Both the position numbers and the translations under genes were made by a program. Of a DNA stretch of 64,000 bases, positions 38,347 to 41,642 are shown one piece after another (the stretch's first letter is position 1; each line of letters opens with the position of its first letter). Origin of the DNA: Actinomycetes bacterium (GTDB lineage Bacteria; Actinomycetota; Actinomycetes; DATJPE01); contig DATJPE010000063.1 in assembly GCA_035506535.1 (NCBI GenBank), positions 163,903 through 227,902 of the forward strand. Reading direction: 5' to 3'. The notes beneath the pieces were generated by a model, which saw nothing but the letters and a program-made list of their open reading frames with translations, was not told the origin of the DNA and searched no databases.

Positions 38347-39255
38347 TCAGGCCAGGCCGACCTGCGCGGCGTACCGGTCGCGGCAGGAGCGGCCGCAGAA
38401 CCAGTGCTCGACGCCGCCGACCACCAGGCTGGGGGTGTCCGGGCCGATGAGCACCGTCATGCCGCAGATCGGGTCCGTGGTGGTCGTCGGCACGGCCTGC
38501 TCGTGGCCGGTGGGCGTCACGCCTCCGGCCCGCCTGGCCTGGACGACGGCGGCGAGGATCGACAACGCGATCTCCGCTGGGGTCCGAGCCCCGATGGGCA
38601 CGCCCACGGGTGAGTGGACGAGCGCACGTTCCTCCTCGGCGAGGCCCATCGCGTCGAGGACCGCGCCGCCGCGCTTTCGGCTGGCGACCAGTCCCACGAA
38701 CCCGACGCCCGCATCGAGCGCCGCGCGGACGGCCATGGCCTCGTCGTGGCCGTGAGTGGAGATGACGACGGCCACAGTTCCGCCGCGTGGCGACGCTCCC
38801 GCCGCCGCTCTCGCCACGTCGAACCCCAGGACCTCCGCCAAGGCGACCACGGCCTGCGCGATGGGTGTGTCCCCGACCACCTGCAGCACGTCGGCGGGCG
38901 GCCTCGGTTCGAGGAAGATCTCCAAGGCGCCTCCCGACAGGCACGGGTTCACCACGACGTGCGCCCCCGGGGTCCGCGGGAAGGCGCCGAGGTCGTCGGG
39001 GAGGACCCGCAGGAGGACTGGCTCCCCCGACCTGAGCGAGTCGACCGCGGCGACCCGGACCGACTCCTCCGCGCACTCCCCGCCGACGAAGCCCTCGATG
39101 GTGCCGTCCGACAACACGATCGCCCGGTCACCGGCCCGGGTGGCCGTGGGCGCCTGTGCCCGGACGACGGTCGCGAGGACGTACGGCGTGCGGCTGCGGA
39201 CCAGCTCGCCGACCCGACGGGCCAGGCGTTCGTCGATCTGCTTCTCGAGGCTCAC
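38347..39255 (-). CDS. XdhC/CoxF/CoxI-family Mo-enzyme maturation factor fused to a C-terminal YHS (putative Cu-binding) domain
   Basis: The GTG at 39255 overlaps the coxL stop (GTGA). The XdhC N-domain (TPYVLATVVRAQAP...GFVGGECAE) and Rossmann part (TVAVVISTHGHDEAMAV) are followed by DPICGMTVLIGPDTPSLVVGGVEHWFCGRSCRDRY, which matches the YHS consensus DPVCGM.V...Y.FCS..C...F. Confidence 0.75.
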   Translation of the reverse strand: MSLEKQIDERLARRVGELVRSRTPYVLATVVRAQAPTATRAGDRAIVLSDGTIEGFVGGECAEESVRVAAVDSLRSGEPVLLRVLPDDLGAFPRTPGAHVVVNPCLSGGALEIFLEPRPPADVLQVVGDTPIAQAVVALAEVLGFDVARAAAGASPRGGTVAVVISTHGHDEAMAVRAALDAGVGFVGLVASRKRGGAVLDAMGLAEEERALVHSPVGVPIGARTPAEIALSILAAVVQARRAGGVTPTGHEQAVPTTTTDPICGMTVLIGPDTPSLVVGGVEHWFCGRSCRDRYAAQVGLA

Positions 39256-41642
39256 ACCGGCGGCCGGGCCCTTCCCTGCATCGCCTCCCAGACGCGGGAC
39301 GGCGTCAACGGCATGTCGGCGTGGCGGACGCCGAAGGGCTTCAACGCGTCGACCACGGCGTTGACGATGGCGGGCGGCGACCCGACCGTCGCCGATTCGC
39401 CGATTCCCTTGGCCCCGATCGGATGGTGCGGGGACGGGGTCACCGTGTGGTCGGTCTCCCAGTCCGGCACCTCGAGCGCCGTGGGGATCAGGTAGTCCAT
39501 CAGCGAGGCGGACAGGCAGTTCCCGTCCTCGTCGAAGGCGATCCACTCCATCAACGCCATGCCCACGCCGTCGGTGAGGCCGCCGTGCACCTGACCCTCG
39601 ATGATCATCGGATTGATCCGAGTACCGCAGTCGTCGACAGCGAGGAAGCGGCGCACGGTGACCTGCGCCGTTCCCGGATCGATGTCGACGACGCAGACGT
39701 ACGCGCCGTAGGGGTAGGTGAGGTTCGAGGGGTTGTAGCAGATCTGTGCCTCGAGCCCGCCCTCCACACCGTCCGGGAGGTCGCCGGCACCGTGCGCCCG
39801 CATCGCGATCTCCTGGATCGTCACCGACTTGGACGGGTCGCCCTTCACCCGGAAGGAGCCCTTCTCCCACTCCAGGTCCGCCACCGAGACCTCCAGCATC
39901 CCCGAGGCGATGATCTGGGCCTTGTCCCGCACCTTGCGCGACACCAGGGCGGCGGCCGCACCGGAGACGGGCGTCGAGCGGCTGCCGTACGTCCCCAGGC
40001 CGAACGGCGTGTTGTCGGTGTCGCCGTGGACGACGTCGATGTCGGCCGGCGGGATCCCGAGCTCCTCGGCCACGATCTGGGCGAAGGTCGTCTCGTGGCC
40101 CTGGCCCTGGGTCTGCACCGACAGGCGCACGACCGCCTTGCCGGTCGGGTGGACCCGAAGCTCGCAGCCGTCGGCCATGCCGAGCCCGAGGATGTCCATG
40201 TTCTTGCGCGGACCGGCCCCGACGGCCTCGGTGAAGAACGCGACGCCGATGCCCATGATCTCCCCGCGAGCGCGCTTCTCGGCCTGCTCGCGGCGCAGCT
40301 CCTCGTAACCGATGTCGGCCATGGCGAGGCGCATCGTCGTCTCGTAGTCCCCGGAGTCGTAGACCCAGCCGGTCTTCGTCGTGTACGGGAACTGCTCCGG
40401 GCGGATGAGGTTCTTGAGCCGCAGCTCGGCAGGGTCCATCTGCAGCTCGTCGGCGAGACAGTCGACGAGCCGCTCCACGAAGTAGACCGCCTCGGTGATG
40501 CGGAAGGAGCAGGCGTAGGCCACTCCTCCGGGTGCCTTGTTCGTGTAGACGGCGGTCATCTTGCAGTAGGCGGCCTCGAGGTCGTAGCTGCCCGTGAAGA
40601 CACCGAAGAACCCGGCCGGGTACTTCACCGGGGCCGCGGTCCCGTTGAAGGCCCCGTGGTCGGCCAGCACATGGGAGCGGATCGCGAGGATCCTGCCCTC
40701 GCGGGTCGCCGCGATCTCGCCGCGCATGATGTAGTCGCGCGCGAATCCCGTGCTGATGAGGTTCTCGTAGCGGTCCTCCATCCACTTCACGGGCTTCCCC
40801 GTGACGATCGAGGAGACGATGGCGCAGACGTAGCCCGGGTAGATCGGCACCTTGTTGCCGAAGCCGCCGCCGATGTCGGGGGAGATCACGCGGATCTTGT
40901 GCTCGGGCAGGCCGGCGACGAGCGCGTAGACCGTGCGGTGCGCGTGTGGCGCCTGCGACGTGGAGTACAGCGTGAGCTTCCCGTTGACCTTGTCGAAGTC
41001 GGCCACCGCACCGCAGGTCTCCATCGGCGCGGGGTGCACCCGCGGATAGACGATGTCCTGGGTCACGATGACCTCGGCCTTGGCGAAGACCGCATCCGTC
41101 GCCGCCGCGTCGCCGGTCTCCCAGTCGAAGCAGTGGTTGTCCGTCTTGCCCTCGCGGTCGTCGCGGATGACGGGGGCGTCCGGGTCGAGCGCGTGGCGCG
41201 CGTCGATGACCGGGGGCAGGGTGTCGTACTCGACGTCGATGAGCTCGAGCGCATCACGAGCGGAGTAGCGGTCCTCCGCGACGACGACGGCGACCTCCTG
41301 GCCCTGGAAGCGCACCTTGTCCGTGGCCAGCACGGCTTGGACGTCGTTGGACAGGGTCGGCATCCACGCCAACCCGAGCCCGGCCAGCGTCTCGCCGGTG
41401 ATGACCGCCTTGACCTTCGGGTGCGCGGCCGCCGCCGTGGTGTCGATGCTCACGATCCGGGCGTGCGCGACCGGCGAGCGCAGGATCGCCATGTGCAGCA
41501 TGCCCGGCAGCTGCACGTCGTCGCAGTAGTGACCCTTGCCGCGGATGAAGCGCGGGTCCTCCTTGCGCAGCATCCGGCCGTAGCCGACGGGGTGCTCGTC
41601 GTTGTTGACGAAGCCTTCGGGACGAGATTCGGTGACGGTCAT
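39252..41642 (-). CDS. coxL: aerobic CO dehydrogenase large (molybdopterin) subunit, form-I-like
   Basis: The ATG at 41642 overlaps the coxS stop (ATGA). The protein is 796 aa and contains the active-site loop GGVAYACSFR (form I consensus VAYRCSFR, Cys retained). The gene order is M-S-L. Confidence 0.85.
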   Translation of the reverse strand: MTVTESRPEGFVNNDEHPVGYGRMLRKEDPRFIRGKGHYCDDVQLPGMLHMAILRSPVAHARIVSIDTTAAAAHPKVKAVITGETLAGLGLAWMPTLSNDVQAVLATDKVRFQGQEVAVVVAEDRYSARDALELIDVEYDTLPPVIDARHALDPDAPVIRDDREGKTDNHCFDWETGDAAATDAVFAKAEVIVTQDIVYPRVHPAPMETCGAVADFDKVNGKLTLYSTSQAPHAHRTVYALVAGLPEHKIRVISPDIGGGFGNKVPIYPGYVCAIVSSIVTGKPVKWMEDRYENLISTGFARDYIMRGEIAATREGRILAIRSHVLADHGAFNGTAAPVKYPAGFFGVFTGSYDLEAAYCKMTAVYTNKAPGGVAYACSFRITEAVYFVERLVDCLADELQMDPAELRLKNLIRPEQFPYTTKTGWVYDSGDYETTMRLAMADIGYEELRREQAEKRARGEIMGIGVAFFTEAVGAGPRKNMDILGLGMADGCELRVHPTGKAVVRLSVQTQGQGHETTFAQIVAEELGIPPADIDVVHGDTDNTPFGLGTYGSRSTPVSGAAAALVSRKVRDKAQIIASGMLEVSVADLEWEKGSFRVKGDPSKSVTIQEIAMRAHGAGDLPDGVEGGLEAQICYNPSNLTYPYGAYVCVVDIDPGTAQVTVRRFLAVDDCGTRINPMIIEGQVHGGLTDGVGMALMEWIAFDEDGNCLSASLMDYLIPTALEVPDWETDHTVTPSPHHPIGAKGIGESATVGSPPAIVNAVVDALKPFGVRHADMPLTPSRVWEAMQGRARPPV

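Follow-up and report, generated by a model that had tools for sequence, protein, structure and literature searches.

We analyse a 64,000-nucleotide stretch of contig DATJPE010000063.1 (the window) from an uncultured Actinomycetes bacterium, and in it the genes of a carbon monoxide dehydrogenase (CODH), with attention to the active-site loop of the large subunit, CoxL. We hold it as nearly certain that the locus is a standard coxMSL operon of an actinobacterial form I [MoCu] CODH, a close orthologue of the high-affinity enzyme of Mycobacterium smegmatis. Its VAYACSFR loop is real but ordinary: the whole actinobacterial clade has it as the normal state, which has already been published and solved structurally. 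A preliminary description of this DNA had read the gene as a form I enzyme in which Ala replaces the usual Arg of the loop; the form I identity stands, while the idea that the Ala is unusual or unreported does not.

The large subunit and its form I assignment

We begin with the gene itself. The minus-strand translation of 39252-41642 gives one open reading frame (ORF) of 796 residues, from ATG to stop (MTVTESRPEG to RARPPV), which includes YTNKAPGGVAYACSFRITEAVYF; the sequence quoted in the preliminary description is therefore real, and VAYACSFR is found exactly as quoted, on the strand that had been left unstated. The plus-strand reading of the same interval, which also runs without stops, is rejected as a meaningless frame of the kind typical of DNA with 71% guanine plus cytosine (GC). 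The loop of the window CoxL is NKAPGGVAYACSFRITEAVYF, with Ala377 (codon GCC, 40512-40514 on the minus strand) and Cys378, and its AYACSFR segment (residues 375-381) fits the AYXCSFR pattern of form I enzymes. Public databases already hold the exact protein (P0001), encoded on a MAG contig of 305 kb, under the name [quoted passage not shown].

The Mo-CODH of M. smegmatis (PDB accession code: 8UEM) is the best structural match for all three subunits. CoxL aligns with chain A without gaps over 791 residues, of which 678 are identical (85.7%), and the GGVAYACSFRITEAVYFVERLVDCLA loop is the same in both. At this level of identity over the whole protein to a solved Mo-CODH large subunit, a chance match is excluded as the source of the CoxL call. 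The medium subunit, CoxM, matches 8uem_B ("Carbon monoxide dehydrogenase medium chain", E 3.5e-111, residues 1-288) and falls among the flavin adenine dinucleotide (FAD)-subunit families within the xanthine-oxidase family (XOF) in an NCBIfam search; the small subunit, CoxS, matches 8uem_C (E 2.5e-84), and its eight Cys (39, 44, 47, 59; 98, 101, 133, 135) form two canonical [2Fe-2S] patterns. From the ungapped HMMER alignments, window Ala377 and Cys378 correspond to Ala380 and Cys381 in M. smegmatis and to Arg387 and Cys388 in Afipia (Oligotropha) carboxidovorans. The M. smegmatis residues Ala237, Ala380, Cys381 and Leu490, as well as the catalytic Gln and Glu, are all conserved in the window CoxL; Ala237 and Leu490, which are stressed as gas-channel residues by Kropp et al. 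(PMC12202499), are Ala234 and Leu487 here. The two enzymes differ by about 14% of the sequence, and the window enzyme comes from the metagenome-assembled genome (MAG) of an "Actinomycetes bacterium".

The assignment to form I follows from several independent comparisons. CoxL scores 1434.3 bits against the NCBIfam equivalog TIGR02416 (CO_dehy_Mo_lg), whose cut-off is 991.15, and stays under the curated cut-offs of all other XOF models, including those for glyceraldehyde dehydrogenase, XdhA and 4-hydroxybenzoyl-CoA reductase. In a distance-based neighbour-joining tree of 78 sequences (71 full-length form I and seven non-form-I outgroups, 764 columns, 100 bootstraps), form I is monophyletic in 100/100 bootstraps, with the window CoxL inside it and apart from the AYRGAGR-type and other XOF outgroups. 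Gln230, Tyr376, Cys378, Ser379, Phe380, Arg381 and Glu749 (window numbering) are invariant across the 71 form I sequences, and Gln230 and Glu749 are the catalytic Gln240 and Glu763 of O. carboxidovorans. The genes run coxM, coxS, coxL on the minus strand from 43011 to 39252, the form I order, with a coxS/coxL overlap of 4 nt. The medium-small-large order and the accessory genes had been pointed out before, and both are borne out: an XdhC/CoxI-like protein, a MobA-like nucleoside triphosphate (NTP) transferase, an AAA ATPase and a VWA_CoxE protein are all found. Judged from its sequence, the window CoxL is thus a bona fide form I, Cu-ligating subunit and not form II.

The proteobacterial form I enzymes of A. 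carboxidovorans (1N5W) and Hydrogenophaga pseudoflava (1FFV) come next after 8UEM in the PDB, with about 60% identity to the window CoxL in the trimmed alignment. They share with it the three-subunit architecture, the coxMSL order, the AYXCSFR loop with its Cu-ligating Cys, the equivalents of Gln240 and Glu763, and maturation genes of the CoxD/E/F type. They differ in carrying Arg387 at the position of Ala377, Val at that of Ala234 and Val or Ile at that of Leu487, as well as at the clade-specific positions 479, 490, 492 and 508 discussed below.

The Ala of the loop and its distribution

The next question is whether the Ala at this position sets the window enzyme apart. Among its 120 nearest database homologues (85-100% identity), which include Micromonospora, Actinoplanes, Nonomuraea, Angustibacter, Acidimicrobiales MAGs and many soil metagenome proteins, all 120 carry Ala, 119 of them as AYACSFR and one as AYACSIR. 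For a wider view, we scan one genome per GTDB species with a degenerate DNA pattern for GGVAY.CSFR, which gives at least 120 loci with 122 motifs in arbitrary order, a sample and not a census; the pattern counts exact loops only and misses SY.CSFR and CSLR/CSIR variants. Among the matches listed, Arg is found in 80 motifs, Ala in 37 (about 30%) and Ser in 5, and all the Ala and Ser loci are titled as Actinomycetota. Examples are Mycobacterium, Nocardia, Rhodococcus, Streptomyces, Amycolatopsis, Micromonospora and Nonomuraea, and further Leifsonia, Cryobacterium, Nocardioides, Acidimicrobiia and Solirubrobacteraceae; Arg-type enzymes are also present in some Actinomycetota.

In the tree, the Ala and Ser sequences together are monophyletic (96/100 bootstraps), and their grouping with an Arg-bearing sister pair, L004 (Thermoleophilia) and L035, is supported in 100/100. 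The window CoxL groups with those of Nocardia, Streptomyces, Sphaerisporangium, Rhodococcus and Mycobacterium (100/100); by its Ala377 and its clustering with the M. smegmatis-type CoxL it belongs to the actinobacterial form I clade in the sense of Cordero 2019 and Kropp 2025. The Ser sequences branch from within the Ala clade, and their codons (TCC/TCG) are one step from GCC/GCG. The Ser loop, AYSCSFR, occurs at loci L009, L024, L044, L049 and L095 and is a motif already listed in PMC13203968. At two of these, L049 (Trebonia) and L095, coxL is present both as a Ser-type and as an Arg-type copy, on opposite strands and no more than 8 kb apart.

The literature gives the same picture. Kropp et al. 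(Nat Chem Biol 2025, PMC12202499) describe the substitution of Arg387 (A. carboxidovorans) by Ala380 (M. smegmatis) in 8UEM. According to them, three additional ordered waters stand in for the contacts that the Arg side chain makes around the pyranopterin; of the actinobacterial clade they write that "alanine is universally present". The form I motif is written AYXCSFR with X variable (PMC13240472, PMC13203968), and a 2026 survey (PMC13203968) accepts six form I motifs, AYACSFR and AYSCSFR among them. VAYRCSFR, which the preliminary description took as the form I signature, is therefore the proteobacterial version only. The Ala377 variant is already known and is not a peculiarity of this genome. 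Since Ala replaces Arg throughout the actinobacterial form I clade, VAYACSFR is the expected ancestral state for the lineage of the window. Annotators should take AYXCSFR as the signature of form I, an Ala at X being diagnostic of the actinobacterial clade.

Four other positions of CoxL switch together with Arg377Ala when the Ala/Ser clade is compared with the other form I enzymes: S479R/K, F490A/N, S492G and G508S. Two of these, 490 and 492, flank residue 487, which has been published as part of the gas channel. The sister pair L004 and L035 already has R479, N490, G492 and S508 and still carries Arg377, so that the changes at these four positions preceded the loss of Arg377. They could represent pre-compensation or a remodelling of the gas channel. 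A speculative form of the former, which we consider rather unlikely, is that the loss of Arg377 was pre-compensated by a new Arg at 479 (M. smegmatis Arg482) that arose before the old Arg was lost. If this were true, and if Arg482 lay near the pyranopterin of the molybdopterin cytosine dinucleotide (MCD) cofactor or near the gas channel in 8UEM, the high-affinity active site would have been remodelled with a stepwise relocation of charge behind it. The Arg479/Arg482 point is not found in the text of PMC12202499, where the listed mentions of "Arg" all concern Arg387. This co-variation with Arg377Ala, speculative as its meaning is, is the sole element of the analysis not found in the literature consulted.

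Proposed mechanism and alternative readings

By homology to the solved enzymes, we can propose how the window enzyme would work. CO would reach the buried CuSMo-MCD centre of CoxL via narrow hydrophobic channels and bind to Cu(I), presumably held by Cys378 and a bridging sulfide. The equatorial oxo group of Mo would then attack the Cu-bound CO, Gln230 and Glu749 forming part of the conserved second sphere. The electrons would run by way of both [2Fe-2S] clusters in CoxS to the FAD of CoxM and on to menaquinone, which in M. smegmatis is reached via CoxG (PMC12202499). Ala377 would be the clade-wide replacement of the proteobacterial Arg387, three ordered waters probably substituting for the Arg contacts as in 8UEM. 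The MocA-like protein may supply the MCD form of the cofactor, and the XdhC-like, MocA-like, CoxD and CoxE proteins together would see to cofactor maturation and to the insertion of S and Cu. In the O. carboxidovorans cox cluster, the XdhC-like, CoxD and CoxE proteins reportedly assemble the sulfide and Cu, as is known from the work of Pelzmann and Meyer.

Could the gene be something other than a form I CODH? A form II CoxL, or another XOF hydroxylase (e.g. of the quinoline or nicotine type), might be misread as one, since CoxL gives sub-threshold matches to many XOF families, and form II CoxL-like proteins (AYRGAGR) share the fold and domain set at about 41-46% identity. Those matches, however, all lie under the curated cut-offs, and TIGR02416 passes. 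When 1.84 billion 50%-identity representatives are searched, form I collapses to one full-length representative plus fragments, so that this is no census of the loop residue X, but the form I representative (1060 bits) stands well clear of the full-length proteins that rank next (at most 651 bits, many of them AYRGAGR). The loop has the Cu-ligand Cys where the form II-like and other outgroups have Gly, these fall outside the form I clade in every bootstrap, and the form II operon order is coxSLM (PMC13203968), unlike that of the window. We reject this identity and give it practically no credence. The reading of the preliminary description, by which Arg to Ala points to a form I CODH that is unusual or novel, its second sphere altered in this genome or a small lineage, has in its favour that both classical crystal structures, 1N5W and 1FFV, carry Arg and that Arg is the majority state among the motifs listed (80/122). 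The M. smegmatis enzyme, solved and characterised, nevertheless has the same loop, PMC12202499 reports the substitution for the whole clade, and Ala occurs in all of the nearest homologues and in some 30% of the form I loci among the matches listed. The variant is thus common among characterised form I enzymes, the very finding that the preliminary description had named as making it unremarkable, and we regard an unusual second-sphere residue as refuted and the reading built on it as extremely improbable.

Some points do weigh against the locus as a standard, working CODH operon. CO oxidation and Cu content are assigned to this enzyme of an uncultured organism by homology, at 85.7% identity to 8UEM. 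The frame of coxD has no ATG, GTG or TTG from 37540 to 37889. No coxG (Pfam COXG; the SRPBCC quinone carrier) is detected in the cluster (35630-43011) or among approximately 55 ORFs across the window, which were searched in five Pfam batches, so a complete Mo-CODH respiratory module, with coxG in the cox cluster, is not found here, and the electron-acceptor step is without local gene support. This differs from M. smegmatis, where CoxG carries the electrons to menaquinone. Taken together, the missing COXG domain and the coxD frame might suggest a decayed or non-functional cluster. None of the three structural genes, however, is truncated or disrupted; they are highly conserved and keep their catalytic residues, and the codon-position GC plot gives a normal coding signal through all seven genes. 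In that plot, the signal of coxD begins, or the frame switches, at about 37720-37750; possible starts are ATG 37890, which would give an overlap of about 130 nt with mocA, and a non-canonical codon, for instance CTG 37731; a frameshift in the MAG is another possibility. As for coxG, PMC12202499 reports it inside the cluster in 24/30 genomes and at another genomic site in 4 more, and because it is outside the cluster or undetected in 6/30, its absence here is unremarkable and is rejected as a sign of an incomplete system. Decay of the cluster is very improbable, and we keep the assignment to an actinobacterial form I CODH operon.

Genes around the operon

The features are collected in Table 1. 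The codon-position GC plot resolves four contiguous minus-strand genes downstream of coxL (xdhC-like, mocA-like, coxD-like and coxE-like), the first of which has a GTG start that overlaps the coxL stop. On the other side, moaA sits upstream of coxM and is divergently transcribed.

Table 1. Features of the cox cluster, moaA and the hydrogenase-like module (positions in the window).
Feature	Positions	Strand	Product or remark	Basis
coxL	39252..41642	-	form I Mo-Cu CODH large subunit, 796 aa	TIGR02416, 8uem_A identity
active-site loop GGVAYACSFR	40500..40529	-	Cys378 = Cu ligand position	pattern match
coxS	41639..42130	-	small subunit with two [2Fe-2S] clusters, 163 aa	8uem_C, Cys pattern
coxM	42133..43011	-	FAD-binding medium subunit, 292 aa	8uem_B, NCBIfam
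xdhC/coxF/coxI-like	38347..39255	-	maturation gene, 302 aa	Pfam XdhC_CoxI 6.8e-16, XdhC_C 3.3e-19; frame plot
mocA-like	37760..38344	-	molybdenum cofactor cytidylyltransferase, ~194 aa	TIGR03310 matur_MocA_YgfJ 1.4e-34 (under equivalog cut-off), Pfam NTP_transf_3 2.8e-32, start candidates
coxD-like	36850..37731	-	MoxR/AAA+ ATPase, start uncertain	Pfam AAA_5 and AAA; MadB-family AAA match
coxE-like	35630..36853	-	VWA protein, 407 aa	Pfam VWA_CoxE 5.2e-60
moaA	43788..44801	+	radical SAM, Mo cofactor synthesis	Pfam Radical_SAM and Mob_synth_C
Fer4_22 subunit	60466-61629	-	hydrogenase-like module
cyclic nucleotide monophosphate (cNMP)-binding ORF	59996-60448	-	hydrogenase-like module
NAD_binding_1/DHODB Fe-S subunit	59161-60039	-	hydrogenase-like module
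Oxidored_q6 small subunit	58367-59119	-	hydrogenase-like module
NiFeSe_Hases large subunit	57073-58500	-	hydrogenase-like module

Between coxM and moaA lies an ORF (43012-43791, plus strand) for a Caa3_CtaG-like membrane protein, in which the Pfam model matches the C-terminal half only. Directly downstream of moaA, the plus strand of 44839-49402 carries a 2-oxoacid:ferredoxin oxidoreductase set (POR gamma, POR_N alpha, TPP_enzyme_C beta), followed within the same interval by a GltD-like Pyr_redox_2/Fer4_20 protein whose C-terminal part is a 2x[4Fe-4S] domain.

The weight of the locus as a discovery is small: one more uncultured actinobacterium joins the very numerous likely oxidisers of atmospheric CO. 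Farther along, the minus strand of 57073-61629 carries what looks like a soluble, group-3-type [NiFe] hydrogenase module. With this hydrogenase-like module and the cox cluster both in the window, the contig therefore carries enzymes for two trace gases, CO and H2. The module is adjoined by DabA, a probable subunit of an inorganic-carbon transporter (61747-63966, minus strand, Pfam 9.4e-182).

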